Shown here: positions 6,614-46,920 of the stretch, one piece after another
Layout: every line of letters starts with the position of its first letter
Position numbering within the stretch: the stretch's first letter is position 1
Assembly: GCA_905233995.1 (NCBI GenBank)
Contig: CAJOGF010000002.1
Coordinates: 23,661-70,580 of the forward strand
DNA length: 46,920 nucleotides
Source: an uncultured Bacteroidales bacterium
GTDB taxonomy: Bacteria; Bacteroidota; Bacteroidia; Bacteroidales; UBA3824
Reading direction: 5' to 3'
Position numbers and translations under genes: made by a program
The notes under the pieces: generated by a model
Databases searched by the model: none
What the model saw: only the letters and a program-made list of their open reading frames with translations
What the model was told of the DNA's origin: nothing

Positions 6614-6636
6614 CAACCTTAAAAAAAAGATAAAAT

Positions 6637-9054: not shown

Positions 9055-9497
9055 TAGAAACTATTGTAAATCAAGGCAATAAGATTTTAATTTTTTCGTC
9101 ATTTGTAAAACACTTAAAACTTATAGCCGCCGAACTGATAAAAAACGATTTGCGATTTGCTTTTTTAACAGGCGAGACTTTAGACCGCGAGGCTGAAATA
9201 AAAAAATTTTCTCAAGGCGATATTCCCGTCTTTTTGATTTCAATAAAGGCTGGCGGCACAGGGCTTAACTTAACTCAAGCAAATTACGTGTTTATAATCG
9301 ACCCGTGGTGGAATCCATCAGTTGAAGCACAAGCAATTGCAAGAGCACACAGAAGCGGTCAGAAAAATTCCGTTATGGTTTACAGATTTCTGTCAAAAGA
9401 TACAATTGAAGAAAAAATTCAAAAGTATCAACAGAAAAAGACCGATTTGGCAGAAAACTTTGTGCCGTCAAAACAGGAAATTTTAGAGATTTTGTGA
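9003..9497 (+). CDS. SNF2/RapA-family helicase, C-terminal fragment (helicase-C lobe)
   Basis: LFDQEISSGKTPQILSMIETIVNQGNKILIFSSF, GGTGLNLTQANYVFIIDPWWNP and QAIARAHRSGQ (motif VI) are present. The frame is offset from 6637..9054. The first ATG in this frame is at 9051 and overlaps the upstream stop as ATGA. Confidence 0.85.
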   Translation: MFDQEISSGKTPQILSMIETIVNQGNKILIFSSFVKHLKLIAAELIKNDLRFAFLTGETLDREAEIKKFSQGDIPVFLISIKAGGTGLNLTQANYVFIIDPWWNPSVEAQAIARAHRSGQKNSVMVYRFLSKDTIEEKIQKYQQKKTDLAENFVPSKQEILEIL

Positions 9498-10130
9498 TGA
9501 CAAAAATGCTGAAATTTCCGCATTTAAACCTTCAATATGCAAACTTAAAATATCGTCCTTATCTTGTGGAACTCTAAGAAAAAGAGTTGGCGTCAGACCA
9601 TATCTGAATTGAAAGAAATGCGTCATCAAATATGACATTTCAGTATTGGCGAAGTTCCACAAAGAGAGTTTTTTTGTCATAAAAAAAGCCTCAAACGATA
9701 GTAAATATTTATCAATCAACTGCATAGAGTCTGCATTTTGACTTTTTACATTCATTTGTTCACAAAAATCGCTTAACTTATCGGGGCTTAAACATTTTGC
9801 TTGACCACAAGAACGAAACATCGCTATATGAAACATACTATCAACATCATTATAAGTTAAAACTTTGTTGGATATAGCAATTTTTTTAGCAAATGTATAC
9901 GCATTGTAAAAATCCGATACAATTTCATAGTCCCAAAGTCTTGCTCTCTCTACCGTAAGATTGGTTTCCAAAAGTGTTTTTGCAGTTTCAAATTTGAGCA
10001 TAGAACCATACGACATGGCTGTTTGCCAAATAATTTTATAAAAACGATTGCGCAAATAGTCTGCACTTTTTTCAATATCCAATGATTTGTATTTTGCGTA
10101 TGTATTATAGAAATCGGCTTCAATACTCAC
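9483..10130 (-). CDS. Hypothetical cytoplasmic protein (no family recognised)
   Basis: 215-aa ORF with no signal peptide or transmembrane segment and a helical-looking composition. Its 3' end overlaps the SNF2 stop tail-to-tail by 15 nt. Confidence 0.55.
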   Translation of the reverse strand: MSIEADFYNTYAKYKSLDIEKSADYLRNRFYKIIWQTAMSYGSMLKFETAKTLLETNLTVERARLWDYEIVSDFYNAYTFAKKIAISNKVLTYNDVDSMFHIAMFRSCGQAKCLSPDKLSDFCEQMNVKSQNADSMQLIDKYLLSFEAFFMTKKLSLWNFANTEMSYLMTHFFQFRYGLTPTLFLRVPQDKDDILSLHIEGLNAEISAFLSSQNL

Positions 10131-10184
10131 TTTTATTAATTAGATTAAATTGTTAGTACATTTTTATTATTTTTTATAACAAAG

Positions 10185-10222
10185 AAAATGCCATAAACTT
10201 TTTTAAGGGTTTATGGCATTTT
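10185..10222 (-). terminator. Rho-independent terminator of the giant gene
   Basis: Perfect 14-bp inverted repeat AAAATGCCATAAAC (10185-10198) / GTTTATGGCATTTT (10209-10222) with a 10-nt loop. It begins 24 nt after the giant-gene stop (10246-10248) and has T-rich sequence on both sides. Confidence 0.75.
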
Positions 10223-10245
10223 GATTATGAAGATTTGCGAAATTT

Positions 10246-13200
10246 CTATCTCAGAAGCGTTACGTTTCCGATTTGCTTGAACAACTTACCGTTTTCAAAC
10301 GTACATCTGCACTTGAATACGTAAACGTCTTGTTTGCAAAGTTCGCCTCTGTAATAACCGTCCCAACCTATATCTGGATCGTTGGATTCGTAAATCTTTT
10401 CACCGTAACGGTTGAAGATTTCAAGAATGTATGTTCCTGCTTTAACACCTTGTCTTGGGTACGGCAAGAATACGTAGTTGTTAAACCTATTAGTCTGAAT
10501 ACCTCCGCAAGGTCCTGATGGGTCAGGAACAAATGCGTTCGGGAATCTCAACATACCTTCTGGCTCAACTCTCACTGGAACTTCCTTACCTTGTGCCGAA
10601 CAATTCTGGTCTGAGTAAACGGTCAAATTCACAAAATAGTCGCCCGATTCGCTGTAATAATGTACAGGTTCCATTTCGTTGGATGTTGCACCGTCGCCAA
10701 AATCCCAGAGATATCTGTAACCTTGACCTTGTGTAGACTCGTTTCCAGTAAAGAGCGGTACATTTGGCAATCTTACAGTATCAGGATGAATTGCGAACTT
10801 AACTTCAGGTGTCGGGTTAACAAATACGGTATCAGTTCTCATATAAACCTCAGCGTCAGCACCCGGACCGTAAGCATATTCATACAACAAGTATCTTCCG
10901 ACTTTATTGAACAAGTATGTTCCACTTTGTCCATCAGGAACTAAGAGTTCTGCCTGAAGAGCAGTTGAATCGTTAGAGTAGTAGATTTCCCATCTTACAG
11001 AATCTGCGAATCTAACACCTTCAATCAACTCGTGTAAGTAAGGATCACAACCCTTATAAGACGCAGGCATTACAGTTCTTGTAGGAGCAGCCGGGAGTAT
11101 CGTTACAAAAGCAGTATCACTCGAAGCGCAATGTTTATTCTTAACATCAAGTACAATGGTATAATCACCGTATGTAGCGTACTCGTGAACTTCTGTACTT
11201 CTGAACATTGTATTGTCGTCCCAAACATCACCACTACCATCACCAAAGTTCCAAGTGTATCTTGTAAACGGACCCGGAACACTATCAGCATACATTTCAA
11301 CCTTCATATTCGGCTGTTTGTAGAGCGAACTTGAAAGGTCTACGTTAGCCACCGGAACGCTGTATATTATGATTTCCGAAGAATCGGTTGAGTAACATAC
11401 ATCGTTAGGTATTCTCAAACCAGTTGTCAAATAAACTGTCAAGGTGCTATCATAATAAGCATCGTTGTAGAATGTTTCCTCTCTGATAGAATCATGGTCT
11501 TGAGTCTCGTAACCAATTATGTTACCAAAGTTCCAACGATAGAATACTTCGTCTTCAGGATACGTGTTAATAGTCGTGTTAGCAAATTGTGCTGTAAACG
11601 GACTACAACCACCCGCTGTACGAGGTACAATCTTGAAGTCAGGTTTAGGAGCAACATAGTAAGTTACTTCTACAGTATCCTGATTGTAACATGTCAATCT
11701 TTCACGTTCTTTAGTATACAAATTACTAACTGTAACTGAACTATGCCATACAATAACATTAGTCATGGCATGAATACTATCAATCTTGGTTTCACGATTA
11801 TTTGGTTGATAGAAGTGAACACCACCATCTTGTGTATCCCAATAACCACTAACTGTTATCGTCAGATTTTCATCATTAATCAACGAATTGCCATAAGGTG
11901 CAGTTGCTTTCAGTTCGGTATAATCAACACAAAGATGTTGATCTTTTCCTGCATCTACACTAAATGCATAGTTGTAAATAATAACTGAATCTTTCGTCGT
12001 AAAACCGTTCTTTGTTACATTCCAATAAAGTTTATTTGGACCTCTTGTAAGACCTCTAACGATTGTCTTTGGATCTGTTGAATTATCAAACCTACAACCA
12101 TTATGTCCTGATGACCACCAACAAACAGCCTTTTCAATCTTCTGAGCATTAAGTTTTGCTGTGTCTTCGCAAATTGAAATATCTTCGCCAGCCTCAACAT
12201 CGAAAGCCTTGAAATCAATCTCAACATAATCAGATGCACTACATAGTGGTTTTGTTCTTATGCCAGAAGGCGAATCATCAACAAGAGTTGCAGTCCATTC
12301 CAATTTATTCTTTCCAGGAGACAATTTAGTTACGTTTGTTGTCGCCTTAGTAGACGGAGATGCAATTCCTGAACCCTCAACTGTACGCCAAACACCAGTA
12401 TAGGTCGGCATTGTCTTCGCTGTTATCTCAATTGAATTAGTCTCTGTCTCATGTACGTTGGTTATAGTACTAATATCAGCATCAACTTGGAAATGGTAAC
12501 ATATAATCTTAACCATCGCCTGAGCCTCGCATCGTGTAACAGTATCTTGTACATGCCATGTAAATGCGTTTGCATATCCCTCACCGTCATCGTTGTAGTA
12601 CAAACCTGTAACTTTAGTATTGTACAAAGTATTGTCAACGCAACGCGGTACATCTCCTGATGCAACATTAGGAACAACCTCAGAACCTGCGCCCCATGTC
12701 CATAGACCTACTTGGTTTTTCTCCAACGGTTGACCTGCAAGTGTTGCAAAAGTATCACAAATTTGTTGATCATTTCCTGCTGTAATATTAATTGTATTGT
12801 TTGTAACAATTACATCCTTGAATGTTCTACAACGAATAACATCACCGCTTTCCACAACCCAACGAATTAAGTTATCACCGTGATTAAGGTTATAAACCAT
12901 AGCCACCTGAGAAGTTGACATTGGTATAGTACCACCACCATTCATGACCTCCCAATGTCCAACACCTTCCGACTGATGAGCCTCAAGGTTAGTATAAGGT
13001 GTACAAACAGGCTTATCTCCAGAAGGAATGTATATCTCTGCTTGTCTGTTTCTAACTGTTACCTCATCATAAGCAACGCAATTGTTCATTTCAACAGTCC
13101 AACGGAATACGTTTGTACTCGAAGGTGCCAAACCTGATACAAATGTTCTATTGCTTGTAGAATTAGAGAACTTACCACCAATCCAATATCCAACCGCTTT

Positions 13201-40200: not shown

Positions 40201-41766
40201 ATATTCGTCAGCATGTTCGAGGTCGTTACAAACGGTTTCTCCGTCAGCACCGGCTGAAACACTGAAACCATAGTTGTAAATGACAACAGTTGAAGACGAA
40301 GCACATTCTGTTACGCCAGATACTCCAGCAACTTCTCTTACATGATTTGTAACTGTCCATTTAACTTTTGCACTCATGCCGTTAGAAAGACCGTCGTAAG
40401 TAGCATTTGCGTTAGTAACCTCGCCGCTGAAATTGCCAGTGTAAGAGTCGTCGTCTTTTTCCCAAATACCTGTTAAACCGCCGTTTTCAGCAGTGTAATC
40501 AAGATTGTTTGAAGATGTAAGTTCAACTTCTTCGTTGCAATAAGGTTGCTGAGAAGAAACAACTGCAACGGCAGGAACTTGAATATTCTTTAAGTTGTAA
40601 ACGTCAACTAATTCGCAGCCCGCTGCATTAGTTAATATCCAATGAAGTTCAACACCCGAAGTAGGAATGTTTTGAATGTGTGCATTGAAAGCAGTTACAT
40701 CTGCAACATAATCTGTAGCCTCTGTTTTGTCATCAGAGAGATACCATTTGCCAGTTACACCTGCAACATAAGATGCTGCAATGTTGGTTTCTTCGCCGCA
40801 GACATTGATTGTTTCGTTTTTAGCAACTTGATTAATTTTCTTAACTGTCAAAGTAACAGTCTTTGTATGAGGACAAGTACCTTTGTCGTCAAAAGCGGCT
40901 GTCCATCTGAAGACGTATTTGCCCTCGTAAGTAAGACCAGAAACTGTTGTATTGTTTGCAGTTGAATTGAAGTTAGCACCAACAACTTCGTCAGAAGAAT
41001 TGATATGCTCTTTTACAAAGTCGATAACTTCCCATTTACCAACTGCTGCACCACCGTTGTAACCACTGATAGAGGTTGCAGTAAGTTCGTATTGAGGACC
41101 GCAGATTTCTTTGCTTTCGTCCTCGTCCTGAGGCATAGCGCAGTTTCTAACGCTAAGTGTCTGCTCTTTGGCAGGACAATCACCCTTAGAAACACTCCAA
41201 ACAAATCTTGCACCCGTTTTAGGAATGTTGATTGCAGTTACTTCAAAAGCATTGTCCGCAGCCTCAAGGTTATCAACTGTATTACCATTGTAAACAAACT
41301 GAACACCTTCGGTTGTTGTTGACCATACTCCAAATGAATTTTCATAGTCGTTAGTATTGTCGAAAGCGGTAAGTTTCAAAGTACCGTCGCAAGTTGCATC
41401 TGGTTGATTTTCTGAAATCATCGCTTCAACATAGTTGTTTGTAATTGTGATTTGAGCCGGCTTAGCGCACTTGTTGTCAAGTGTCCAAGTAAACTTGTTA
41501 GCATCATCGTATGCAAGTCCATATGCTGTAACGCTGAACTCTTTAGAAGAGTTTTCGCCAGTTTCTTTATCACCAAATTTAACATTATTATTTTCGATTG
41601 TCCAAGTACCAGTTACGCCGTGTTCAGGCTCAACAGCAACAAGTTTTATTGAACCATCGCAACTTACAAGGTTTGAATTGTCAATTTGAGCGTCAGCAAT
41701 TTTAAGACTCTTAATGATAAGAGGTTCTGAAACTGCAACGCAAGACGGCATTGTCGTTGTCGCCAT
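10246..41766 (-). CDS. Giant T9SS-secreted repeat surface protein/adhesin, C-terminal ~10,500 codons (downstream part of a frame-broken gene)
   Basis: The ORF is uninterrupted from 42099 down to 10246. The repeat-domain signal in this frame begins only at about 41750. ATG 41764-41766 is the first in-frame ATG that overlaps the upstream ORF by less than 60 nt. The product ends in 4 PKD-like domains and a type-B T9SS sorting domain. Confidence 0.85.
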   Translation of the reverse strand: MATTTMPSCVAVSEPLIIKSLKIADAQIDNSNLVSCDGSIKLVAVEPEHGVTGTWTIENNNVKFGDKETGENSSKEFSVTAYGLAYDDANKFTWTLDNKCAKPAQITITNNYVEAMISENQPDATCDGTLKLTAFDNTNDYENSFGVWSTTTEGVQFVYNGNTVDNLEAADNAFEVTAINIPKTGARFVWSVSKGDCPAKEQTLSVRNCAMPQDEDESKEICGPQYELTATSISGYNGGAAVGKWEVIDFVKEHINSSDEVVGANFNSTANNTTVSGLTYEGKYVFRWTAAFDDKGTCPHTKTVTLTVKKINQVAKNETINVCGEETNIAASYVAGVTGKWYLSDDKTEATDYVADVTAFNAHIQNIPTSGVELHWILTNAAGCELVDVYNLKNIQVPAVAVVSSQQPYCNEEVELTSSNNLDYTAENGGLTGIWEKDDDSYTGNFSGEVTNANATYDGLSNGMSAKVKWTVTNHVREVAGVSGVTECASSSTVVIYNYGFSVSAGADGETVCNDLEHADEYTLKAGELKDNQTGYWTSTTTVVYQGEKSNSAATVLVKGLSNKEPNKFIWTVTNEYGCTATDDVTIINNTPDDAVINNKPAEGYSLCENKYSLSAQAVANDNNAHWENVSGVKWYVNNEEKTYEEISTATSVEARNLTPNTKTKFTWVVSKGSCQRQDFVEIMNSAYDPKILTDNNQTVCTSTFKLEAEDPANVYGDKVTGYWSVNDNNITLPATSTNAVMIVELPYGTTTFNWNLTDGKETNSCGVKTTSINVTNKMVTSKPGDNDYTCTKEYTLDANTLPQEEGISGKWSLDMTSAGLNLNDVTIKNDKNNHTLVSGLTSGQYIFNWTVINKYGDGENDKCESTNPVTITSERFEVLADVLAVDENGEYTGKRDICGSDITITASGNAQNSDNFEWSVSPDYVTYTAEGLNLSLKGIVSTAEITFTETRGKCPATSKVVLTNRQPSATIGTTEYWTCDGSATLSGQKEESGQKGYWVKTSSNGEFADTDETTLRAIAAKVTLPSNSTATFKWVLALENDNNCKDEQVVTVKNNKVEGLTITETNKAQEECSNTRTLSAPTIPSGFTGSWSCVFDDVVFSTEANANQTVVSNLHKGANEIVWTLRSNDGKDCDENVVRATIYNNAVEERLAVNLEECLSPEDELRVDVPAADKGNNETAEWRPNGLTVVEKQDSYTTFKGFSLDENKLTWRIQAGSCYTDVPVTIVNNYVKAELGENAKLESCDGTLEGLVAKDVTATYGGTSKGWWTTDGVATLGSETGDTKGSDNENQVNVYNIPASGAKLVWNVTKGNKCSDTKEVTILNYYLPVSVDEKYINQTACDGTKTLRAADISSYSGAKGQWTVSKTPQAHSGEVVFANDGTTAVTEVSNLNAIGAYYFTWTAWREDNNRVKHCENNVENVIVNNINLMVKADNVNDKGKVANCGAEYTLNATKPGTDETGKWTASNGKDIFSNSTLYNAKVSGIPAEGVTLTWTITKDDCSASSYFEIFDTKEYAQAVASSPVCDGKVTLTQNNDLTKDNLTGQWSIVNGTGKFYDINGNELANVVEVADMNGNTSVKFEGIPAGKTATLRWTLKNSTVDNCDDYIDVEVHNEAFTFSAGADDETNCSDTYTLGADAAPQGCQGTWSPSSFTYSDIHDPKATVSGLKNGENELTWTVVKGDCSYQRSVTITNNSIDEAIILTEDNQVVCEDNFQLKAKEVTNGTGYWTGYGVEWSSNEGNGYDVCSTVATVRVSNLPKNQTTSFTWTITNPNGGKPACTDSKTITVNNKYYDAYIVTPVPKENEKDAMIEGCETVYNIAANDAFTDYGVEGHWEAVTPVNGKLSTEIDNTSYTMTVTDIKATAIFRWVVSNDACPEPYKTKSATVTITNNQVAANAGKDGITCGDSYQMQAVNPQSGKGHWEIVDAPGAVIADDQKDNPNAVITGLSNNGLYTFSWVVENEGGKCPSHDEVTISSNGFEVQADINAEPVMNDENEIVGYKHNICGNTAKIEATPLQPGAEGFWTVTPNTVSMVGSTGNLVELSGIEPATPATLTWSVNYNGCNDVTNSVTLYNRKPIVGSDAEHFYCGLSKTQKENGDVEDGIRLNATKADGYNTKWEIVSGSVEFKDDNSEVYNPIVYNVPATSSAVLKWVVSDKNLTTCNAEQTFTVTNNRFEPVINTQNTNVCADNATVSGSIPAKGFEGKWSSFSATFDDETASTTTVEGMTIGENIIRWTVLNTDENGASSALCADNYVELTITNLKPGVPVIVTENNTQVCSKDDFNNGINKLVAGENAEGVKGEWSTTGHAIISDKNELRTSVENLDKDDNTFIWTIYREGYKESCSEQTQVVIINNEVTAGADLQDAYTCDGSYLLHADYNNDVNTGTTTGEWTALPNTDIVFANDATNQNEVRVSGIKTTAPVIFTWRVKKGQCTSDPVSMTVTNYEVKPEINREKTSQFACSADDIELFAKEVSAFGPNTFGEWTLKEGGYPSTRISDPATIVIANDGTQNNTTVSGLVEPGDYTFVWNVWREVDGFDPEKGYDKGICHNSDEITITNAMLVADADVELPSNTARSECGDQVQLRGNSYQGATGTWKILTENSPVKFSPEDDIHNPTATITGIPNEGVTLRWTLDNHVRNENGEISLKRCEDSDNITIYNDLTVPHATANATNVCDGKVTLTTTNTLNGNMKGVWSTTATGHFENGEQECTATPETFQTVKFEGMTPGATATFYWNVINEANGCMAKEPFAITVNNNDFVVPAAAERPTACENSLALSATIPCENINDPELTEHYWRWNQSSIYFNGSESTNQTATVYGLSNSDDNILNWHVTYKGCTKEWEVTIHNYSVEEAKITSHQGSVEVCDQDFSISANSTTVGVGRWEISPSVTIKTGDINEPNITVTNMPANSNVTFRWYIERFKDNNNPKDDELLCRTQSESVVVKNLNYTAKISTKKQLVCNSEVELNANDVKSLYGDAIEGWWTSSNDVEWNGENSNSSYNVTVKKLPFGETEFVWHVKGTQCPNEVTDKVVIVNQPVKAAISESAQKNTCGTSATLKAVYSNPELKGYWTCESDADFDNNADANYVERSNFETKVNNLNPQKSEYRFRWHIYSDGYTTADNTKVPGCEDYADQLITMNSLNGVIADMAKGVKNATENVCGPEGVITAHTPILEGWWTTLPTGNEGMITSDTKNNQMTFNLGDKMSMVFVWHEKYEDCEAEDQVTVNNIAPKVNAGPEVYYTCDGSRTLEAEDPGENNGVWSKVVTTDSGDFDGSANINNAVYTGIADDSSVRLKWTVTAKDDESCSNSVERTIVNQRFRPEVIADNTVCGTELQVIGTTPQFEYNGKWSCLTSNNVSFEDDGTNANTKVLNLQPGENIVRWTVINKNGVVKCNENYVDYTITNLQPSVATIIDGKRETCGEKLELKATPLKGDEKGKWTANKAFTAENNVIDASNIVLTKLENDETKFVWTIYRDGHEECTSSATTTVVNNTVDMGTGISSLNYTCDGSVELIASNNALDNTGVTRGEWTPAENTSLVIENSDNYHAKVSNLPLKATEKFIWTVYKGNCSDNVEIAVTNYQVTPTVYPVDPICKSDFGKATLKADPLSPYGEVGSEVFGEWTVKTSPVEVVINNSDNNVATVENMTKNGEYIFQWMVYRKVAGISGEDGYTDGGICHDSRVVTVNNNTVSADADTRFTENAIHVCGTEFKMLANTEAEATGTWTLTDGSSAEAYIAASESTSPTATVKNIPASGVTLRWTMTRNDGTCSDYDEITLYNEKTPAVVTVDEQTCDGTVTLTTSNEVDGDYDGVWSTVSKGTFSTDPAVIVSTASGKTAVFQGMAYNTEATFYWSLKHNVKVTDGVNTYDYCESDPIRKVVKNIDFDFTAGVNATTDNCRSSYELKATKPEAATGEWTAETGAEFVDKTDPTTTVNKLSNKEVNRLTWTVTLEGCAPKSKIVEITNLGVDAPDVYTTSKTTCKETETLSAVAAEGGHWEITPKTVEYVDCVSTDANITVTNLPVNSSASFNWVIERLDNNGNVVCRRSTADEDINKTVVITNMNYKSVISTTDKTICNNYVEGLSANDVEKEYGVKGWWTASSDRVTFGDNSDATAKTSSDHKVNAYNLPYGEVTFYWHVKGGNCDEAVPATVVINNEQITTDANAEVTTCDDKAELEAELPTSSWNAKGYWTCTSFGGNENTLTYNNSTSNETVVSGLQRGDYVFEWTLESPARQNDPAKKAGCAAIKEITVHANDYDITADNSSDVKVENGKKIHEICGSEFMITATESRANGHWTGIENYVEDYATASSNNVLSFNLGNNRSATFTWSEDYRGCKKSDQITIINTEPEATAPSKQYTCSGTIELKSDAPASSYNGSWEVAEGTWPGTLEGNVFTFSKENAKETNPALRQAKLYWVVTNDKGCANRKVVTVFNNKFTPEITVDEPNGAKVCGTEAKVIGSIPTEGFTGRWTPQRLGVGFENEESSSTVVNGLQYINNKIQWTVTNIDGDEKCTENSVTKEVQNVNPGTPEIAATMKTESCDGTATLEAKKSSLTNVYGWWTDNRGVLNKGVYNATSETVVIDNSSALLESGDNVFTWTIARQGEENWCSESTNITITNNTINIGEPIPATASTCLENGSITLEASNHKALNGETATGEWTSKSGNIEIGENSTNYRVEISGITPNTSEEFVWTVKKGSCEVPQNITVSNNFVKAELVNSAVYTCGDQAMLEATPISTYGNNVHGEWKVETTKVADVTFTNSTNYKTIVNGLTENGQYEFSWNVYREIDGDEVCPQSVIVTVTRDNFTVNAAANYTNGVEGQTVKDGKVIGVCGSTVTITPTKPEGSTGVWYTADGQVYSEESKITVDNLTELGTKLIWQVSRGTAPDVCTASDEIMIFNDVVTPAVDVEPITCTGNITMRTTNDLNANLSGKWSTTFASGSFEDNTATHVSEVDGSIATYYNIPNGANVTFKWTLTHTVHNNACVTSKTFAVSNNKFSFTAGNDANATCEGTYTLQGTYPEGVTGATGYWTADQKVTYVDGEDESTNRNAKVSELNNTTPTTFTWTVTANNCTDSREVTIINNQVKEASITPLASDIVCGDYLDLNANDPEGKGMGQWIYPAQVEFTKGTSTDNIITVTNLAANQAQKFVWRISRPNGANNDCVSEAEVTVKNMKYDAKIAVPFAVKAKESKEIVICKDNIKLQANDVKTDYGVDGWWENVSVNEATFANDVTSHIMTVENLPYGRTTLRWHAWDAAHVCSESWAEIVVINESLETNAGADDWTCNGRYESLTATNPKSECHGVWNCTGGVDYENVTFDVSTNYITAVSGLKSGAYQFTWTVYSEHYKEDGAGNVLSGCKTSDEVLISADGFKVDADNTADDDTKKRAICGQEARLIASEYEGYWTVVPNDGTVTISSPSYYDTNVDLGVNTSATFTWHATYKECHAEDNITLNNIQPTIVDAGKEVYYTCEENGSVTLNAKQTADGTHGVWSKKSPTLKGSFNGNANESGIDEYNAVYTGVPANSSVELVWTVTSKFVDVDNVEKDCPAYDYATVVNNYYKPSIDVATEVCGLDTTITGYMPSEGFTGTWTCETSTDVKFEVVNDSKTKVQGLEFGQNVIRWTVLNNIGDKKCTNNFVEVTIDNIHPGYPEILTNSGVSPVETCDGSKELKAKEPSVDGVEGYWYTNRDGQFKDGVSASTLVTLENMSVDDNLLTWRIFRSGHDKCYVESTLTVVNNEVKLGTQPQDAYTCGGSYILAAENEKINNGNSASGLWTMKTNGQYATISNDPTNNKIEIVDIAKNNSEIFTWTVSKGGCHDAFDVTIYNHQVLPEAATKNGNTTICENYVDLVASSITSYGSSAKGYWTLESYPDTRIDDSKTITFDSQSETPRVEGLSQNGQYAFAWNVYRETADLDRVCDTAAIVNITNAMFTVDADVNVDNENGKSASACGGAYQLHASTPANGVVEQYWQTVPENVEGITFDNSNEAVTMVRGVTNNGVTLRWNVFNGTCWESDEIKVYNDQFIALAKPDANFICDGDKGITMTTTNDLDDMNTVGIWSTTAESGSFGDDSNNRIISVEGNKSVTYRFLKPGTTATFYWTIRHTANGQVCENATSFTVTNREFSVYAGADNHTESIDGLNCSDEYVMKADALSSEVRIDENGNEIGWSGVWSVDTKAQFEDSTDPKTKVSLLSNKVPNNFTWTVTDPYGCTQTANVQIKNNAVDEAIIEEGDAISICSMPYPLNAREVSEGSGHWENLSGTISPAKTDAHIEISGLTPNSDAVFAWIVERDNGVGKCTSRAEIKVTNSDYEAEILTKVPDGEQSILTCDNTLKTVDGVAYKLLAADSKERYGVPGHWETTNPVTFTNEGSNSANEISVEGLPYGPTTFTWVLDGSCPFDATKHQASITVNNEKVSANAGDDVYWCKSNYDGLTATDPSFLGSGKWELISGNNMTNVTIESTGVYHTAINGMTSGDYKFRWTVTSEHGCQISDEVTIHHNGFNVEYADMYGSAVKDENGNEIPYARQRFVCGETTPTDKPLTAALPHTDATGYWIVPNGVTVDNPTNYITNVTSGITKDGVTLVWHEDYAECSAEASVTLYNRKPVANASQEYYTCNGEIPQLTATAAVDGTTGVWSKAVETVNGYFDNDEVSTTNINARFYGMDDNSTVKLLWTVSDNEFTECATVVEATVTNYNFHPVVESKTGVTTTCKTEIDLEGTMPATGYTGVWSSDKNGEFTAIDGQTTSVTATLERGPNTITWTITSDGVANGQHCEYPATLTVVNNNPVAARIKAEPETCNNEIVLTTDKYDEETFDQGKVTGKWRKLGGATLAEGYTDENTTEVKYTNLDLNNNIFYWTLTKGECQSEASITITNNYVEAGDIPELNLYSCEDNKINLQVVNSYDKFPGSTGVWTSQNGSKFMVGEETMNTTSAFAVTAVEIPSTGDIFTWTVRKGICQDQRVINVANQNVTAKVVTDKITICSPDGLMTTKLEAQNVSGNAKGYWKLEEAPSGYTIDQSVIQNSTNYETKVNGLTRKGEYKFSWNVYYAAKDELGNEVVNCPTKQDFVTVVNDMFNDNEFTAGVDDYTECTDEYTMNATKPADATGYWDVVSGVEFVSEKFDNAVEDPNVTVKGLKNEGTKFVWHVKRTSNACEDSKAIVITNNLPDQPVIYNESKTICEDYITLSAKAANTDNNERGEWTSDVQGLTWGTNGYDAEKSNEQVLVSNLIPNTTATFTWTVYKKKRPDQEAECSIPVSVKITNTSYKAEVFTEDRTICDDNEVINLEAKSIKESGATGWWTCNRPDEVEMPENVSTETITVKGLPHGSVSFYWNVQGGNCGVQTSSPVTFVNSAVTTNAGQSRTVCEHEVVLTADASDLNYNATGKWTMTKGNGEYNIESPDIYTTKVTGLTGGDYDFTWTVTSQDGKCELSSVVTISDKTFTVDADLEADNVAKYRNVCGQDNIVVEAQTLVGTGQWEATTGGVTFANDNSTSNKIAVSFSENVTLKWTETRGEGDSKCTAEDVITLYNRKPLPKAKTEYESCDGNFELHANKDNERMVGYWYKKADSYSGYFGSEDNKQSSSALENAIYYGVDENASSTLVWRIYDDVMTTCYDEVEAVVNNFKYSPSIPKVPTGTETICGNTREDLTGTLPEGFTGKWSSNNKDVTFTAEESSMTTVNGLLRGENEIIWTVTKTGNEKSCDNKTSVIIVNNDPTQALITTDRLTAEREACDGTITLAAVNINGDEECEWSLSGNAEFSPNASTNVVTVTKLDKGTHLFTFTVRKGKCETTDKIEITNNQVLAHIGAIPQSCDGTIQLNATDPATLEAYCGHGVWSAASDQVVFEDNNPSLANAKVSNLPAGSTMFTWTVSEGQCVKSEKVAIVNNTVKAEINVAKNDEGKKIIYSCNDKELITANNLEGSGAMGEWIKGSPYSNDVDMASTAEAVTISGLKLSQGSNIFTWRVSKGECSATDEVTIVSNKVETNIANVDANNQIYTCDLEYTLQAQLPSGCKGQWRKIDGAGEIEGETESSKIKLTNLAVDAFTTLEWTVTSLVNENCTDVKTVSVRSNHVEAQVANDIINTCTGDNVMLEATALSEAECFWSPATPSNQGVIKNSTASVTEVNGVQPDFNEKYIWTVKLDRGGVKCEDSKAVTIVNNGFNLSAGGRQWKVEDGGDDKYYYGNYNIDANEKLCNDYQVLQATSYAVGGGFWTVESGEGWIADEESTNPNATLHIAAGAVVNLRWTYTKNECPHEAYATVISSRVVAEAYDGTTCDDRASLNGILKAGETGTWVGSNDVTIVDNTLYNSSVENLNKGKNAFTWTVTNGRCSNSAPVTIDYLVPSAQLPNTLVDDWCGYEYNLTASKDPALDNYTGYWHVVKGTGQFAEGQQTNWQTQITNLSKGENIIEWIVTSKENCQGSSQIVINNIAPDVYVSDYFGDCGPDGTIEASEYDPDKYLGYWQIKKGTEYSEFSIENSTAYRTHYSGARRGSTILTWTVVVKDNPKCSVTRTTNVENKSILVSAAVPEDYCSDEVAVSASALNEKDYGYWKSANQNSTIKFENSESNLTKVSNLQYGTNTIVWHVVAENGCEGDAYVDIVHKSYPGFTAGEDQTTCSTKAPLAATSPETYEDESNMPNVISYWEKVSGPETVGFVNSTSFGTEVTGLALGRSVLRWTVDNGTCVMTDEIEIVNNGVEANAGGNSLITLCEDSYQFFAVMPEVYDSVAWKIGYGSGQFDVQRTHNSNVEPYNGDESLNPYTEKCNSATISNLMHGTSTFEWHVYYNGCDTHDDVRIKSVAPSKAEAMASTPVCETDFHLSANDPKIYTEKYWIDENDNSKVIIDNSTSPYTEVHNLSIGENRFKWVIVNEEDGRRCPSEAEVVLTNQSITVSAGQDYVTCDFDAKLKAADPGIYKGFWEPVNSQGTVEIVNSTAYETDVKGLQVGGNTFRWTKYNDQCRVSDEVTITVNKATVANAGEDFTSCTSYTTLMANTPDKDEIGQWFVITGSGIVLESTNFKTNVESLSAGKNLIEWRILRGGDDINDPNVCFSSDTIVVTSRNITMSVTSSAEEYCSDEGEVYGYVNIDDYTSRWEPVGGNAKFLTSTENNSKVVNLQEGRNTLRWTVTSVYDGTKCESYRDVIVENNTAPKAIVPETRTSCDTFVDVLGNVPPQGTYGEWSIADGVGVFENSTAYSTRVSGLSADDANYAVWTIHKGSCTSSDTIMITVNKMITNVSGDDGTNTLEICGTESPISAAPAGEGARGWWETNAQGITIENSTSENARVTGVTTGAHTLVWHVKKTDESDCHASAKLIVVNNLYKATATLATANPICDGYATLIGNVPSGGSKGYWTGPETVEFSNKETPVTTMFPGVTGPNIAYWHIKKGKCEAVASVNVLNYSVDVELGDEITACDVDEVKTLAAPNPPVGGYGYWENPNGSVEIEDTNSPVTKVTNIQQGANVVVWHVYSPEVENDKGELTRCHAQASLVINNNHFETNAGEDFEVCDTITELRAMYQGPKAVGYWIGGKFSNSTSNRTFVSGLAPSSTNVFRWTVEMNNCVAYDEVTVRNRQAEIYIPSGDKPVCTPYTNLEAHQSEGVGHWEVMNGGGTIPMSTSQVAMVYNLNHGDNLIRWVVESGDVIRCRTFKDVIVTNNTINITAGNDQQICDTFATLAGQPLEKNQVGLWTWGAGSEVVPNVASGDVPRCVDNTLYNTKVTGLYYNDDGEGYANAFTWHVQDTVTRCEAQAMVKIICYHFQVDADISTITNVHETETNSIEITAKTMPTYTGVWRTVEGSGIASPSTKATTNVTKLSPGKNKLEWTATLVDDSPSGIRTKPLCSASDYVEIDFKAFDVEAGEDISICEDTAKLNAQKIEKAVCWWSSGHNGCRFDNSTDPKTIVRGLTRGPNKLYWNVTKNGFTTKDSVIIYNYAFSVDAGKDQHLCVDYTELKATAPYGNSLINDENLTITVSGYWDTQDGGVHFYQPNNRETKIDSIHAMTNVIVWHSSVTVSNLYTKERERLTCYNQDTVEVTYYVAPKPDFKIVPRTAGGCSPFTAQFANTTINTYPEDEVFYRWNFGNIIGYETQDHDSIREETFYNDAYYDSTLTVYLTTGLRIPNDVCYSTDSSEIIIYSVPVANVDLSSSLYKQPNMKVEMYADSVPGPFTRYTWNFGDGSGDVWDDNTMFRSTEVHEYATYGDYTIVLDVKNKHCASSDTAFVTILPAAPTRTVMPASYKGCDPYLHELIEGVRFADSVRWEIYYSNDSTALQAELLVPDGQSGTYLFNKVGRYLLYEYAYGPGADAEVYMRTDTVFVNPTPEVKFAIHPDTVRLPNVPLFTGNESTQGQGYRYLWDFGDGATSNEMEPVHYYSESGDYFVNLTVYSDQNCSAQGKEVPVRVEPEGMLRFPNAFVPDPSGPCGGIQTNRFNNYVFLPYPRQGVKAGTYILEIFNRYGEKIYESNDPDIGWDGYYRGELCKQDVYVFKCRCTFENGKLFKQIGNVTLLR
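10249..10554 (-). other. T9SS type-B C-terminal sorting domain (gliding-motility-associated CTD, CHU_C/TIGR04131-like)
   Basis: The last 102 aa read MLRFPNAFVPDP...YILEIFNRYGEKIYESNDPDIGWDGYYRGELCKQDVYVFKCRCTFENGKLFKQIGNVTLLR. This fits the family hallmarks (I/F)PNAF.P, IFNR.G..(V/I), WDG and G.V.L.R at the extreme C-terminus. Confidence 0.85.
10555..11649 (-). other. Four tandem PKD-like domains (11356-11649, 11095-11355, 10816-11094, 10555-10815)
   Basis: Domain 1 has YRWNFGN, domain 2 has YTWNFGDGSG...HEYATYGDYTIVLDV, and domain 4 has YLWDFGDGATS...HYYSESGDYFVNLTV. Domain 3 is the same length but lacks the W.FGDG motif. Confidence 0.75.
11650..17811 (-). repeat. Tail array of 23 divergent ~90-aa two-Cys domains with no higher-order period
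   Basis: 23 successive domain ends of the form L..G.N...W.V....C were counted, from ...TLEWTVTSLVNENC through ...VIVWHSSVTVSNLYTKERERLTC. Many carry an (E/D/V)NS(T/E)....T.V..L motif. Confidence 0.75.
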
Positions 41767-44700
41767 ATTGAAGATTTTTAGCCGAAACAGTTTGTTCGGA
41801 AGAAGTCTTTTGATTATCATCACCAAAAGTAACACTTGTTGCAGTAGAACGCCATGTACCAACAAAGATTGTTGGGTTAGGATTGTTACCGCTAAGCAAT
41901 GCTTGGTCTTCGCAAATACCAGTCTCGTCAGCAGTTGTTTTGGCAATAGCCTCTGCATAACGGTTGAGAATGGTAACATGAGCATCAGCATGACAACCCG
42001 GCATAGCGTCAGAAGTAATTCTCCAAGTAAGTCTTGCATCTTTGTTAGGCTCAAGCCCCTTGATTGTAGCAGTTGCGTCATTATCAGCAGAAGAAACAAA
42101 TACTAACTGCTCGTTGCCACTATCATTAATCCACTCACCCGTTGCACCGTTAAGAGTAGATGATGTAATTGTAACTTCTTGATCTTTAGAAGCACAAACT
42201 TCTTTTTCAGTATCGCTAACTTGAGGAGCAACGTTCTTAACGTCAACCGAAGCAGTTGCAGTACAACTATTTCTTTCAACCGTCCAAGTCAAAGATGCCA
42301 TTGTATTAGAACCCTCGAACGCAAAACCTGAATTACCTTTGGTTTTGTCAGCAACTTTAATAATACTTTCATCGTATGTCCAAAGACCTATTGCACCGTC
42401 AGCCTCCAAAGAACCAGTTGAACCACAAACATTACGTTTACCAACTTTGCCGTCCTTACCAGTCGGGTCTGCAAAAGTTGTAAAGGTATTGTTGATGAAA
42501 CTTACATCTTTAGAAGTTTGACATGTAGGATTTTCTGTATTAGTAAGAGTCCAAGTGAAAGTATATCTATCATCTTGAACTCGTTTAATGCCACTAACAA
42601 CAAGTTCTTTGTTGGTTGCATCAGTAATATCACCAATTGCCAAACCAGCGATTTCGCCACCTTGTGGAACATCTTTCAACGCCCACTGACCAGTCCAACC
42701 TGTCTGAATGTCAGAAGCGGTAAGAATGGTTTCGTCCTTACAAATGATATTGTTGGAAGTTTTGGAATCCTTAACAGTAATAGTAGGCTCTGAAGTAAGC
42801 ATTTGATTCTTAATGCTTACGTACGCTGTTTTATGATTTGTAGCATTTCCGTTATCATCGGTTTCTCCGCAATGTGAATTTTCGTCAGATGATGTTACAA
42901 CCCATTTAAACTTATAGTTTCCGTTAGTAAGATTTCCAACCGTAGTACGGAAATTATTTGCGTTAGCAAAAGTAGGCTCTTCTGCATCAGCAGGTTTGCT
43001 TTCTACCGACCATTTACCAGTTGCACCATTGTATTGAGCAGGATCCACTGCTGAAAGTTCAAATTCATCATCACAGATAACTTGACCATTAGGTGTATTG
43101 ATTTTAGCCTCAAAATAATCTACGTTGAAAGTTTTTGATACTGAAATAGGACAAGTTGTCTTGCTTGGATGACCTTCGTTGTTTGCAGTAACAGTCCAAG
43201 TTACGGTATGCTCTCCATAAGTCATACCGCTAATTGTATTAGTTTTAGCAGTAGAATTACTCATAGAAACACCAGAAGTTTGGTCAATTGTCCATTCACC
43301 TTTTGCAGTAGACGGAGTATAGTTGTCAGCCATAAACGTATAGGCTGTCTCACAAATACTACCAATTGTACCCTCCTCAATAATAGGAGCAGTAATCATA
43401 ACACTCTTAGGCATGTTGTTGACAATCTCAATTTGAGCATCATCAACACAACCACCCGGAGAAGTTACAGTCCAAGTAAATACAGTAGATTTTGTATTGT
43501 CAAGGTTAGTAACTTTAGCATTTTTGTTGGTCATATCTTCTGCCGAAATAACAGCCGAAGCAGTATTAGGATAAGACCAAACACCAGTATATTCAACACC
43601 TTTAACAGCAGACGGTAAGTCAGCGGTCATGATGTAAGAATCAGAACAGTCGGTAACAACTTTATCAGCACCAGCATTTGCCTCGAAACCTTCGTTGTCG
43701 ATTTCAAGGTAATCTTCGTCCATACACTCTTTGTAACCACTTGCAGTAGTAGCATCTGTTACAGACATAATCTTATTGTAAAGAGTATATGTTATCTTAG
43801 CAGTTTTTTGCATTCCAACACCAAAAAGTTCTGTGTTTGGACCTGTTGAAGCTGAAAGTGTTCCGTCAACAATTGACCAATTTGCATACGAAGTTTCATT
43901 ATCACCTGTTCCAGCAAGACGAATTTTTTGTGTTTCTGAACACAATGTAACATCGTCAGTTTTGATGATAGAAGCCTTAATCTTATGATTGGTGATATAC
44001 AAATCATCAGTCATTTCACAAGCCGAACCATTAAACTTCTTACCACTCTGAACGTGCCATACAAGATGAGTTTCAGAAAGTGTTAAACCGCTAACTTTAG
44101 CATTAGCATTGTCGGTTGTGGTTAAGTCTTCTGCACCGAAATTGCCCGAACCTGAAACTGTCCACCAAGCCTTTTCGTATTCAGTAGAAGTATAAGGATT
44201 AAGATTATAATAATCGTAACAATCAGCAATTGTTTTAACTGGAATTTCAGCATCAAAACCTTTATCTGCGTTAACCTTAGTGTTGAGGACTTTAACACGG
44301 ATTTGTGCTGAACTTTCACATTTGGTATTAACAGTTGTGCTACCTGTTATAGTATTATTATCACCCTTTACAACATTCCAAGAGAAAATGTAAGTACCAG
44401 AAGCAGTAAGATTAGAGAATGTAATCTCGTTTGCAGCACCATTTGCAAGAACCGAAGAAATATTTTTAACGTCAATTCCAGCAGGTGCTTTTACTATTTT
44501 CCAAGTACCTATTGCATTATTGTTTTGGGTAATGTCGTTTGCACGGATAGTAATTTGATCGCCGCAAAGCGGATATTCATAGTCAGGAGTGAAAATTGCT
44601 TTGTTTTCGTCTGACTGTGTTGATTGTCCGTCAACAACAACAATTTGAGCATCAACTTGATTGTTGTAAAGTTTTATAGTTTGCTTGTTGGTACATTTCA

Positions 44701-46920
44701 AATCGCCTTCGCCCTTAGAAACATTCCAAATATACTCTGTACCGTCCTTAGAAGGCTTAACGGTAATAGCAGGACTTGTTAAGTCTTCTGACAAAATAGT
44801 AGTATTTGTTGACCAATTGTGTTTAACATTATCGCCCCAAGATTCTTTCGGGTCAGGAACAGAAATTACATGTTCACCACAAACGTATTGTTCGTAATCC
44901 TTGCCTACTCCAACATAGTTGTAAGTCAAAACAATAGGGTCAGATGTCTTAGGACATTTTGACGAAATTGCAACATTCCAATATACATTGTTTTCACCTT
45001 GGTTGAAACCTTTGGCGTAAACAACTGGTTCAGAATTATTTTCTTCACCCTCACAAGCCTCGTCAAGATAGAATTTAACACCCTTAGTGTCAGAAGTCCA
45101 ATAACCATAAACACCGTTAGAACCTGTAACAGGAGTAGCGTTCAACTTAACAATTTCATCGCAAAGAACGCCTGAAGTTGTGGTTGGAAGCGGAGTTCCC
45201 GGATCAACGTTGTCAATAGTTACGGTTTTAGATACTTTACACTCTTGACCTTTTTCATCGGTTGGAGTAATAGTCCAAGTAAGAACATTTTCACGCGGTT
45301 CAAGACCTTTAACTATTGCTGCAAAATTAGACGGATTTTCTGTTACGCCGTCAGCATCATAGAATTTAACATTTGTACTTGTAGAAGACCATTTACCAGT
45401 ATAACCATTAGGCAAAACGGCTCCAAGTTGTGCTGTTTTATCACAAACTTCTTGGTCAACACCCGCATTAATAGCACTGTAACCATAATTGTAAACCATT
45501 ACAGTGGTTGAATTTTGACAAGCGTCTGCTTTGTTTTTGTCGCTAATAACAACCCATTTCAATTCTACCTGCGAATTGTCGCCCATACCGCTGAATGTAG
45601 TAGCAGCATTGGTTTCATCTGCAAGGAGAATACCTGAAGCAGGTTTTTCCCAATGACCTTGTGCCGGTTCGGTAGGTGTAGAAGCAGACAACTGACCTTC
45701 ACCATTACAAGTTACAACTTGAGGAACTGCTTGAGCCTTAACGCTGTTATCGTTGATAATAACATCATCTTCGGCAGTACAGCCGTTTTTGTGAACTCTC
45801 CAAGTAAGATTCAAAGTCTTGTCGATACCAGAAACAGTTGCATTGTATTGAGAACTATTTGCGGAGAACTGAACATTACCTTCAGCACCTCTAATAATCC
45901 AAACTGCATAATCATTTTCACCAAGTTCACCCGGATAATCAGCACTAAGAGTGGTCTCGGTTGAACAGATGTCCATAATGTTAGCCTCACCCTCTGCGTT
46001 AAGAGTATAAGCGTCAACTGTGAAAGTATTGTTGTTAACAACAAAATCTTTGTAAGAAGGCTCACATTCATGACCTGCTTGACCGTTGGTAACTGTCCAA
46101 CGGAAAATATATACGCCCGGTTCATTTAAACCAGAAGTAAGTTCAACTTCGTTTTCGTTGTTGTCGGCTTTAGCGGTCTTTGTGTCAAGAACAGCATTCA
46201 AGTCTGCCATATTAGCATTGTTGTTAGGAGTTTGAATACAAGACCACTTACCAGTAGCATAAGGATATTGTTTCAACGACTGACCCTTCAAAGTAACTCT
46301 TACGTTACCAGAAGCAGGGTTGCAGATTGAAACTTTGTCATCTCCTTGAAGCGAAGCAATAAGTTTGTTGTTGTAAACGGTCATATAGTCGGTGCTTTCG
46401 CAACCAACAAATTGTTTTTCACCGTTTTTATCAACGATTTCGCGGTTACTCTTAACCTGCCATGTAAAACGAACACCGCTTGCCAAAACAGGTATTTCAG
46501 TAACCTTAATGTCTTTTGTATATGCTTGATTTATATTATCACCAGCAGCAATTGTAACATCGTTGTATACAACTGCGCTGCTTGCTGTCCAATAACCATC
46601 GTAATCAACAGTATTTGGCAAATCAGGTGTCGGAAGGTCGTATGTACCATCACAAGTGTAATCCTCTTCCTTAGAAAGTTCGGTTGAAGCACCATTGTAG
46701 TTAACATAAACAACATCTTCGCTGGTACAAGTTACATTATCACCTTTGTGATCCTCTGTTGTACGAGTAATTGTCCAAGAATAACGATTTTCACCATCAC
46801 TCAAAGCGGTAACGGTGGTTTGGTGTTCGTTTTTAGAACCAAATGCACCAGAACCAAATCCTGAAACAACATCCCATGTTCCACTTTCACCAATGTTAGT
46901 GTTAGCGGCTTGTGCTGTCA
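17812..46920 (-). repeat. Array of a 12-domain (~1,125-aa, ~3.38-kb) super-repeat; 9 A-type domain copies in the window, continuing beyond the right edge
   Basis: The Trp codon of the A-type domain motif (Y.F.W.V) recurs at 44378, 40903, 37561, 34177, 30793, 27418, 24043, 20623 and 17866. The spacings are 3475, 3342, 3384, 3384, 3375, 3375, 3420 and 2757 nt. Confidence 0.85.
41711..46920 (-). CDS. Giant repeat surface protein, upstream part (5' end outside the window)
   Basis: The ORF track begins at TTG 46804, but the same frame stays open to the window edge. Positions 46805-46920 translate to TAQAANTNIGESGTWDVVSGFGSGAFGSKNEHQTTVTA, which continues the domain pattern. It has the same domain family and the same domain order as the downstream ORF. 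Confidence 0.85.
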   Translation of the reverse strand, partial: TAQAANTNIGESGTWDVVSGFGSGAFGSKNEHQTTVTALSDGENRYSWTITRTTEDHKGDNVTCTSEDVVYVNYNGASTELSKEEDYTCDGTYDLPTPDLPNTVDYDGYWTASSAVVYNDVTIAAGDNINQAYTKDIKVTEIPVLASGVRFTWQVKSNREIVDKNGEKQFVGCESTDYMTVYNNKLIASLQGDDKVSICNPASGNVRVTLKGQSLKQYPYATGKWSCIQTPNNNANMADLNAVLDTKTAKADNNENEVELTSGLNEPGVYIFRWTVTNGQAGHECEPSYKDFVVNNNTFTVDAYTLNAEGEANIMDICSTETTLSADYPGELGENDYAVWIIRGAEGNVQFSANSSQYNATVSGIDKTLNLTWRVHKNGCTAEDDVIINDNSVKAQAVPQVVTCNGEGQLSASTPTEPAQGHWEKPASGILLADETNAATTFSGMGDNSQVELKWVVISDKNKADACQNSTTVMVYNYGYSAINAGVDQEVCDKTAQLGAVLPNGYTGKWSSTSTNVKFYDADGVTENPSNFAAIVKGLEPRENVLTWTITPTDEKGQECKVSKTVTIDNVDPGTPLPTTTSGVLCDEIVKLNATPVTGSNGVYGYWTSDTKGVKFYLDEACEGEENNSEPVVYAKGFNQGENNVYWNVAISSKCPKTSDPIVLTYNYVGVGKDYEQYVCGEHVISVPDPKESWGDNVKHNWSTNTTILSEDLTSPAITVKPSKDGTEYIWNVSKGEGDLKCTNKQTIKLYNNQVDAQIVVVDGQSTQSDENKAIFTPDYEYPLCGDQITIRANDITQNNNAIGTWKIVKAPAGIDVKNISSVLANGAANEITFSNLTASGTYIFSWNVVKGDNNTITGSTTVNTKCESSAQIRVKVLNTKVNADKGFDAEIPVKTIADCYDYYNLNPYTSTEYEKAWWTVSGSGNFGAEDLTTTDNANAKVSGLTLSETHLVWHVQSGKKFNGSACEMTDDLYITNHKIKASIIKTDDVTLCSETQKIRLAGTGDNETSYANWSIVDGTLSASTGPNTELFGVGMQKTAKITYTLYNKIMSVTDATTASGYKECMDEDYLEIDNEGFEANAGADKVVTDCSDSYIMTADLPSAVKGVEYTGVWSYPNTASAVISAEDMTNKNAKVTNLDNTKSTVFTWTVTSPGGCVDDAQIEIVNNMPKSVMITAPIIEEGTIGSICETAYTFMADNYTPSTAKGEWTIDQTSGVSMSNSTAKTNTISGMTYGEHTVTWTVTANNEGHPSKTTCPISVSKTFNVDYFEAKINTPNGQVICDDEFELSAVDPAQYNGATGKWSVESKPADAEEPTFANANNFRTTVGNLTNGNYKFKWVVTSSDENSHCGETDDNGNATNHKTAYVSIKNQMLTSEPTITVKDSKTSNNIICKDETILTASDIQTGWTGQWALKDVPQGGEIAGLAIGDITDATNKELVVSGIKRVQDDRYTFTWTLTNTENPTCQTSKDVSFINNTFTTFADPTGKDGKVGKRNVCGSTGSLEADGAIGLWTYDESIIKVADKTKGNSGFAFEGSNTMASLTWTVERNSCTATASVDVKNVAPQVSDTEKEVCASKDQEVTITSSTLNGATGEWINDSGNEQLVFVSSADNDATATIKGLEPNKDARLTWRITSDAMPGCHADAHVTILNRYAEAIAKTTADETGICEDQALLSGNNPNPTIFVGTWRSTATSVTFGDDNQKTSSEQTVSAKNLQYGDNDNAVLRCSFRTSYH

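Follow-up and report, generated by a model that had tools for sequence, protein, structure and literature searches.

The window analysed here, a stretch of 46,920 nt from an uncultured Bacteroidales bacterium (contig CAJOGF010000002.1, assembly GCA_905233995.1), is occupied from its right edge down to position 10246 by the coding sequence of a giant repetitive protein on the minus strand. The present analysis shows or strongly supports that positions 10246-46920 are the 3' 36.7 kb of one uninterrupted gene, with a product of at least 12,230 aa, at least 1.33 MDa and at least 126 domains. The best explanation of the whole is one continuous giant gene for a type-B cargo of a type IX secretion system (T9SS) that forms a surface fibre, and we regard this explanation as probable.

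Reading frame and repeat array

In frame 2 of the minus strand no stop occurs between the right window edge (46918) and a TAA at 41711-41713. In frame 0, the open stretch that reaches from 42099 to the TAG stop at 10246-10248 comprises 10,617 codons. The runs of consecutive sense codons on the two sides of the break between these frames are 10,501 and 1,736 codons long, and splicing at the break gives a conceptual product of 12,224 positions, as had been proposed in the initial annotation of this DNA, which was made from the letters alone and described a single minus-strand frame with one break. The visible product has 12,223 aa, a mass of 1.33 MDa and a pI of 4.5. Neither a start codon nor a signal peptide is visible within the window, as was also stated there, and the right edge cuts through a repeat.

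A hidden Markov model (HMM) iterated from one 100-aa seed gave 126 repeat matches that tile the protein end to end, in line with the approximately 126 copies of a 90-94-aa domain that were first counted. In the natural register there are 125 domains plus one that is cut by the window edge, with a mean length of 93.5 aa (range 78-125). All copies share W35, and at least 90% of them have C14, as is also true of W70 and of C77. The mean identity between repeats is only 23.5%.

At the DNA level no repeat array was detected in the gene by Tandem Repeats Finder (TRF), and no exact repeat within it is longer than 21 nt. Because the repeats are undetectable in this way, a collapsed or inflated assembly of near-identical units, for which a check had been recommended, could be ruled out as the origin of the array. 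At the protein level the domains are arranged in a 12-domain super-repeat (about 1,120 aa, or about 3.4 kb). At lag 12 the identity is 30% and at lag 24 it is 28%, compared with the background of 23.5%, and there is a minor similarity signal at lag 6. The ten most similar repeat pairs are all spaced by multiples of 12. Since the period in the window gene is 12 domains versus four in its full-length relatives (see below), these data suggest that the window array grew by old duplication of blocks of about 3.4 kb, which have since diverged to about 30% identity.

The position of each part of the gene, together with the gene next to it, is given in Table 1.

Table 1. Parts of the giant gene and its downstream neighbour in the window.
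Feature	Position	Strand	Observations
Cut repeat, C-terminal part	46694..46920	-	Frame open to the edge; first HMM match at residue 27, first natural-register domain at residue 76
Repeats 1-16 and first two-thirds of repeat 17 (5' block)	41754..46693	-	Frame 2; HMM matches; super-repeat phase as in the downstream block
Junction giving the apparent frame break	41753..41754	.	About 23, 26 or 29 nt missing (2 mod 3)
End of repeat 17 and repeats 18-125	11656..41753	-	Frame 0; HMM matches; contiguous in a second assembly
Module 1, PKD-sized, degenerate	11359..11655	-	PF18911 E 0.21 only; collinear and conserved in family alignment
Module 2, canonical PKD	11095..11358	-	PF00801 E 1.3e-9, PF18911 E 2.5e-9
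Module 3, PKD-sized	10816..11094	-	No Pfam family at E<=1; conserved in family alignment
Module 4, canonical PKD	10564..10815	-	PF18911 E 1.7e-15
Type-B T9SS C-terminal sorting domain (FPNAF...IFNRYGE...GWDGY...GNVTLLR)	10249..10563	-	PF13585/TIGR04131; invariant in family alignment; followed by TAG at 10246-10248
215-aa ORF	9483..10130	-	Directly downstream of the giant gene (116 nt), same strand; weak HTH_18 match only

The frame break

The initial annotation treated the frame break as incidental. Three public contigs that overlap the window were found via the neighbouring 215-aa gene, none of them being the window's own assembly: ENA ERZ28573570 scaffold_53 (134 kb), ENA ERZ27234821 k141_3078469 (32.8 kb) and a 2.2-kb Logan contig. 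The first base of the MEGAHIT contig k141_3078469 is window position 41753, exactly at the break, and its partial product of 10,501 aa is an exact match to window 41751..10249 in frame 0. The 3' block of 31.5 kb thus recurs in this second assembly with no net indel.

The break lies within repeat 17, the upstream side of which aligns to profile positions 10-67, with its last residue at position 68 (after the motif L-x-x-G-x-N), and the downstream flank of which restarts at profile position ~79, three residues before the conserved Cys. Absent are profile positions ~69-78, about nine residues that include the conserved Trp, and a 1-nt homopolymer error at the break was ruled out on this ground. 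A programmed frameshift was also considered and was set aside in view of the contig end at the break. A gap of 23, 26 or 29 nt restores both the domain and the frame, which is why we take one of these lengths to be missing.

An apparent frameshift of the same type splits the SNF2-family helicase gene of the window into ORFs 6637-9054 (805 aa) and 9003-9497 (164 aa), with the junction at 9012. At that position scaffold_53 carries 24 additional bases together with a gap of 10 Ns, and it is also where the other two public contigs end. When the Ns are removed and the contigs of scaffold_53 abutted, a single SNF2 open reading frame (ORF) of 962 aa is obtained, of which the window lacks 25 nt. The split SNF2 gene in the window is an assembly artefact, not a pseudogene. 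In the giant gene the frame break is probably also an assembly junction, at a contig end at 41753 with about 26 nt lost, and not a mutation. Such junction artefacts are of the kind that annotators would call pseudogenes or split genes, and in the annotation of scaffold_53 the downstream part of the giant gene is indeed called as a separate gene of 10,391 aa from an ATG at 41421.

The phase of the super-repeat is kept across the break, as none of 5,000 permutations of the upstream domain order reached the observed signal (p<2e-4). It follows that no whole domains are missing modulo 12 and that the 5' block is in register with the 3' block, although the loss of exactly 12 or 24 domains at the junction may be accommodated by this test. 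Continuity of the gene across 41753/41754 is, in our judgement, very probable.

Up to about 49 kb of further sequence upstream of the window is present in scaffold_53. The 61 nt at the right end of the window had no exact match in GTDB genomes or JGI metagenomes, and the N-terminal 1,721 aa had no relative in the JGI metagenome scan.

The C-terminal cassette and its genomic context

The C-terminal 469 aa consist of four modules of about 85-100 aa followed by a 105-aa C-terminal sorting domain (CTD). The four modules had all been described as PKD-like; all are PKD-sized, modules 2 and 4 are canonical by PF18911/PF00801, and modules 1 and 3 were undetected by Pfam but are conserved in the family. 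The CTD scored 28.4 bits against PF13585 (CHU_C) when scanned alone (cutoff 27) and 24.1 bits within a 799-aa context, and it reached 33.2 bits against TIGR04131 (E 4.3e-8; curated cutoff 35). Close relatives (P0013, P0014, P0002 and P0004) likewise have CTD scores of 23-32 bits, and for this reason the domain would belong to a divergent sub-family. The CTD match ends one or two residues before the TAG, and the terminal motif G-x-V-T-L-L-R is common to the family.

Since the HMM scores are borderline, the genomic context is of importance. When GTDB was scanned with the cassette alignment, 568 relatives were returned, and linkage was counted in the best 80 loci. Local HMMs were built from nine Pfam-confirmed downstream genes, six of them PorP/SprF (PF11751, E 1e-49 to 1e-66) and three PorE-like (TPR+PD40). 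Among the 80 loci, 47 CTD-bearing cargo ORFs were followed by a PorP-like gene and 24 by a PorE-like gene (TPR, PD40 and CarboxypepD_reg) that starts less than 400 nt after the stop. Type-B cargoes are known to lie next to genes for cognate PorP/SprF-family shuttles (PMC12618676, PMC9143113). Because the PorP/PorE linkage in the relatives is the organisation described for type-B cargoes and for ghpA-ghpB-ghpC, the sequence comparisons argue that the cassette is a genuine type-B secretion and anchoring module, and the assignment of the giant protein to the type-B cargoes is thereby supported.

At two loci of more distant relatives a pair of tandem CTD-bearing repeat genes of about 1,800-2,100 aa overlap slightly (L029, 54-5411 and 5396-11767; L061, 1845-7157 and 7133-13474). 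Neither pair has a PorP/PorE gene within 4 kb, and the pairs could be true paralogues or split giant genes. In another locus, L004 (ENA ERZ28653902 scaffold_5482), an orthologue with about 60% identity is split by a 13-N scaffold gap (7642-7654), and its TAG stop at 9680-9682 was read through as Gln by the source's gene caller, which gave P0013 an extra tail of 23 aa. According to the family alignment the true C-terminal end is ...VTLLR, and the window gene also stops at TAG.

The surroundings of the window gene are different. The genes downstream of it in the window are the 215-aa ORF, the SNF2 helicase and hexapeptide transferases. No PorP/SprF or PorE-like gene was found with Pfam and the local HMMs in window 1-10245, nor within 10 kb downstream in loci L005-L009 and L004, and there were no sprC-, sprD- or sprF-like genes in window 1-10245. 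The 47-kb window contains none of the T9SS core genes sprA/sov, porK/L/M/N and porV. The 215-aa ORF itself was considered as a PorP/SprF shuttle and ruled out, as it matched neither PF11751 nor the local PorP/PorE HMMs; in the closest relatives, L004-L008, other genes stand at its position. Since there is no PorP/SprF or PorE-like neighbour in the sequence at hand, the window gene and its closest relatives appear to be 'orphan' cargoes. In Flavobacterium johnsoniae 3 of 12 type-B cargoes are orphans that are served by a distant shuttle (PMC12618676).

Fold of the repeats

An AlphaFold2 prediction of one repeat, with the other 123 as alignment, gave a beta-sandwich with a predicted local distance difference test (pLDDT) score of 94.2. 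In Foldseek searches this model matched immunoglobulin (Ig)-like folds, with the best template modelling (TM) scores for the PKD domains of KIAA0319 and its paralogue AAVR; the TM score against the KIAA0319 PKD structure 2e7m was 0.68. The repeat profile also matched the PKD structures of KIAA1837 (E 4.5e-5) and KIAA0319L (E 2e-4). When single repeats were searched against Pfam, as had been advised, 11 of the 124 matched PF22352 (K319L-like PKD) at E<=0.01, the best with E 5e-8. Most single repeats are below Pfam detection, and on sequence criteria the repeats would therefore be a divergent PKD/Ig sub-family. The predicted fold is consistent with the Ig-like beta-sandwich that was suggested at the outset.

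Relatives and conservation of the array

The repeat profile was searched against a library of 1.84 billion proteins, of which 10,278 matched at E<=1e-3; the top scores exceeded 3,000 bits. The best-scoring relatives have 61-73 repeats and 5,600-6,600 aa, and in each of the five best (P0133-P0137) the same four modules and CTD form the C-terminal end. In P0133 (6,346 aa), P0134 (6,580 aa) and P0135 (6,224 aa) a signal peptide is followed almost at once by the repeats, while P0136 and P0137 have no intact N-terminus. Proteins of the P0133-P0135 type carry the names 'PKD repeat protein' or 'gliding motility-associated-like protein' in their sources. The architecture is thus already abundant, though unnamed, in public data, and the window gene is an oversized member and not a new kind. 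The full-length family members found reach about 6,300-6,600 aa with 68-73 repeats, and the window gene is about twice as long. Searches with the N-terminal 1,727 aa and the C-terminal 799 aa of the window product gave no self match in the protein libraries, and members above 10,000 aa may be under-represented there.

The five closest GTDB relatives are Bacteroidales species known from metagenome-assembled genomes (MAGs), with cassette identities of 68, 62, 61, 55 and 51%. The nearest is from goat abomasum, and the MAGs are labelled only 'Bacteroidales bacterium'. In four of the five the orthologous ORF is cut off by the flank or contig end after 3,400-3,800 aa, and the fifth is on a 7-kb contig. 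Over the C-terminal ~3,800 aa all five orthologues align with the window protein on a single diagonal with 42-55% identity, compared with 24-27% off the diagonal. Because the single-diagonal alignment is so far above the off-diagonal identity, individual repeats (about 36 in five species) are orthologous one to one, and the array is older than the species and was kept without homogenisation. Along with the old super-repeat of 12 domains, this one-to-one conservation suggests selection on length as such, and would fit a spacer or reach function.

Alternative readings

By sequence, the closest characterised relative that could be detected is GhpA of Aureispira sp. CCB-QB1. GhpA is a Sec/T9SS substrate of 5,898 aa in which a hook module at the N-terminus is followed by 52 Ig-like stem repeats and, at the C-terminus, by a sorting domain. 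It forms rigid heptameric 240-nm fibres that are anchored in the outer membrane near the PorP-like GhpB and the PorE-like GhpC (bioRxiv 10.1101/2024.01.29.577165). Against PDB sequences the repeat profile matched GhpA (9flp_A) with E 1.3e-105 and 349 bits in 11 stretches; eleven GhpA domains pass the threshold singly, the best of them located in 4758-5280 with i-E down to 4.7e-13, and the window CTD aligns weakly to GhpA 5808-5882. These matches, and the ghpB/ghpC-like PorP and PorE genes downstream of many relatives, raise the question whether the window protein forms a multimeric 'grappling hook' of parallel protomers, with a rigid hollow stem about twice as long as that of Aureispira, which catches cells or flagella. 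However, the strong matches are confined to the base region of GhpA, its stem repeats being matched only weakly, and in the full-length family members the signal peptide leads straight into the repeats, a hook module of 1,400 aa being absent. Moreover, the clade of the window gene is without PorP/PorE neighbours, and the Bacteroidota O-glycosylation motif D-(S/T)-(A/I/L/V/M/T) is depleted about 2.8-fold in the window protein (20 observed versus 55.7 +/- 7.3 in residue shuffles) and present in only 10 of 124 repeats. A hook of the Aureispira kind is accordingly an unlikely description of this protein.

Another possibility is that the 5.2 kb upstream of 41753 were mis-joined from a paralogous giant gene, or from a distant part of the same gene, in which case the true length would differ. 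Two assemblies break at this place, the window's assembly joins contig ends imprecisely, and no retrieved sequence spans the junction. On the other hand, the flanks share their strand and their repeat family, the broken ends complement each other as two halves of a single repeat, and the 12-domain phase is preserved, which a random join would achieve about once in 12 cases. We consider a mis-join improbable.

The initial annotation placed the protein in the class of SprB, the gliding adhesin of F. johnsoniae, and a mobile adhesin of this type would be carried over the cell surface by the gliding track to which it is attached. What stands of this assignment is the secretion class and the size, that is, a giant cargo with a type-B CTD, and some orphan type-B CTDs of F. 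johnsoniae do target their cargo to the gliding machinery (PMC12618676). SprB repeats (PF13573), in contrast, gave no match at E<=0.01 in three segments of about 800-1,000 aa or in any of 124 single repeats, the sprC/sprD/sprF-like neighbours are missing downstream, and the CTD has no specific SprB similarity that was noted, no direct comparison having been made. With the nearest relative from goat abomasum the host is, in addition, probably a gut anaerobe. We do not regard the protein as an SprB homologue, and we consider a gliding function improbable.

The reading that the break is real, with either a pseudogene or two separate ORFs (an upstream one with signal peptide but no CTD and a downstream one of about 10,400-10,600 aa with CTD but no signal peptide), so that no full-length fibre would be made, can draw on the break and TAA seen in the window and on the separate downstream gene called in scaffold_53, but is very unlikely, as a contig of another assembly ends at precisely this base, the same type of error affects a housekeeping SNF2 gene that is intact elsewhere, the missing part is a clean core of about nine residues of one repeat, and the flanks are otherwise stop-free over 5.2 and 31.5 kb.

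Some points weigh against the explanation that we prefer, that of one continuous gene for a T9SS-dependent surface fibre. The sequence across 41753/41754 was read in no intact assembly, and it is from the flanks that we infer contiguity. The N-terminus, the signal peptide and any tip module lie beyond the window edge. The TIGR04131 score is under the curated cutoff, and PF13585 is passed solely when the CTD is scanned alone. Neither the window nor the 10 kb that follow the gene downstream in the five closest relatives contain a PorP/SprF, PorE or T9SS core gene. Finally, the depletion of the O-glycosylation motif weakens a close structural analogy with the heavily glycosylated GhpA.

Proposed secretion and role of the fibre

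The following scheme is drawn by analogy with SprB, GhpA and the literature on type-B cargoes. The protein would be exported by Sec via a signal peptide presumed to lie beyond the window edge, its type-B CTD would be recognised, and the chain would pass through the SprA/Sov translocon. A PorP/SprF-family shuttle encoded elsewhere in the genome would then take over the orphan cargo. Anchored by its C-terminus in the outer membrane, the protein would project its repeats as an acidic fibre of about 0.4-0.5 um with the N-terminus at the tip, a length that is scaled from GhpA (240 nm for 5,898 aa) and makes the earlier estimate of several hundred nm reasonable. Adhesion to, or distance-keeping from, particles or other cells would be the most likely role, not catalysis. 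The fibre may be a flexible single strand, which is what has been proposed for SprB, or a rigid multimer like that of GhpA, and it may be mobile or static.

Should the gene be intact, one chain of more than 1.3 MDa would have to cross Sec and the T9SS translocon before it is anchored. This would roughly double the documented cargo size of SprB and GhpA, in a lineage (gut or rumen Bacteroidales MAGs) without described fibres of such kind. That the completed gene will prove to encode the longest T9SS substrate yet described, and that it forms half-micrometre GhpA-like fibres on uncultured gut or rumen Bacteroidales with no linked PorP/PorE anchor, is a possibility that we put forward tentatively and consider rather doubtful in its entirety; if it held, the upper size of cargo that the T9SS translocon accepts and its hand-over mechanism could be tested directly.

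Other features of the window

Several antisense ORFs of 150-264 aa are present on the plus strand inside the giant gene (16990-17613, 29776-30570, 33991-34521 and others) and most likely result from the coding strand's skewed codon composition. A 63-bp tandem repeat at 4596-4812 (3.4 copies, 99% identical) lies inside ORF 3713-4960 (plus strand), the gene of a coiled-coil protein; scaffold_53 has a 100-N gap at this site, and the copy number in the window may consequently not be the true one. A scan for terminator-like hairpins in 9300-10400, including the intergenic stretch 10131-10245, gave no informative signal, and Rfam and tRNA scans of the window gave no match.

Comparison with known giant proteins

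Giant arrays of Ig-like domains are found in other systems as well. Titin resembles the 12-domain pattern of the window gene in having super-repeats and low identity between neighbouring domains. The ice-binding adhesin of Marinomonas primoryensis is a protein of about 1.5 MDa with about 120 BIg repeats that are nearly identical at the DNA level, and it is exported by a type I secretion system. It shares with the window gene a run of some 100 or more tandem Ig-like extender domains, but differs in its export route and anchoring, and its near-identical DNA repeats contrast with the maximum of 21 nt of exact identity and the 23.5% protein identity seen here.

SprB (6,497 aa) is, like the window protein, a giant repetitive surface protein with a type-B CTD, and it depends on the T9SS and a shuttle of the PorP/SprF family (PMC12618676, PMC9143113). 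It is encoded in a sprC-sprD-sprB-sprF operon, whereas no sprF-like gene follows the window gene, and the host lineages differ, the present one consisting of Bacteroidales MAGs. SprB has about half the length of the visible window product, so that the first estimate of roughly twice the size of SprB was correct.

GhpA and the window protein have in common a C-terminal sorting domain and many successive Ig-like repeats, which are homologous by sequence. It has a 1,400-aa N-terminal hook/adhesin module, while the N-terminus of the window protein is beyond the edge and P0133-P0135 are without such a module. The GhpA gene is followed by ghpB (PorP) and ghpC (PorE), in contrast to the window gene with no PorP/PorE neighbours, and its 52 stem repeats are exceeded more than twofold. 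The heptameric stem of GhpA has a uniform length of 240 nm, while the fibre of the window protein may be single or multimeric.

The Bacteroidota family represented by P0133-P0135 is identical in architecture, and its C-terminal cassette is collinear with that of the window gene at 32-36% identity. These proteins have 61-73 repeats compared with at least 126, a super-repeat period of four domains compared with 12, and a mean repeat identity of 31-34% compared with 23.5%. An adjacent PorP/PorE gene, absent at the window gene, is found in more distant relatives with the same cassette.

The first reading of the sequence had ranked the protein among the largest bacterial proteins. This was too strong, since predicted bacterial proteins reach 85,804 aa and those of at least 10,000 aa form a recognised 'large' class (bioRxiv 10.1101/2023.11.21.568195). 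The window protein is large but far below the bacterial record; within the T9SS cargoes it is about twice as large as SprB and GhpA.

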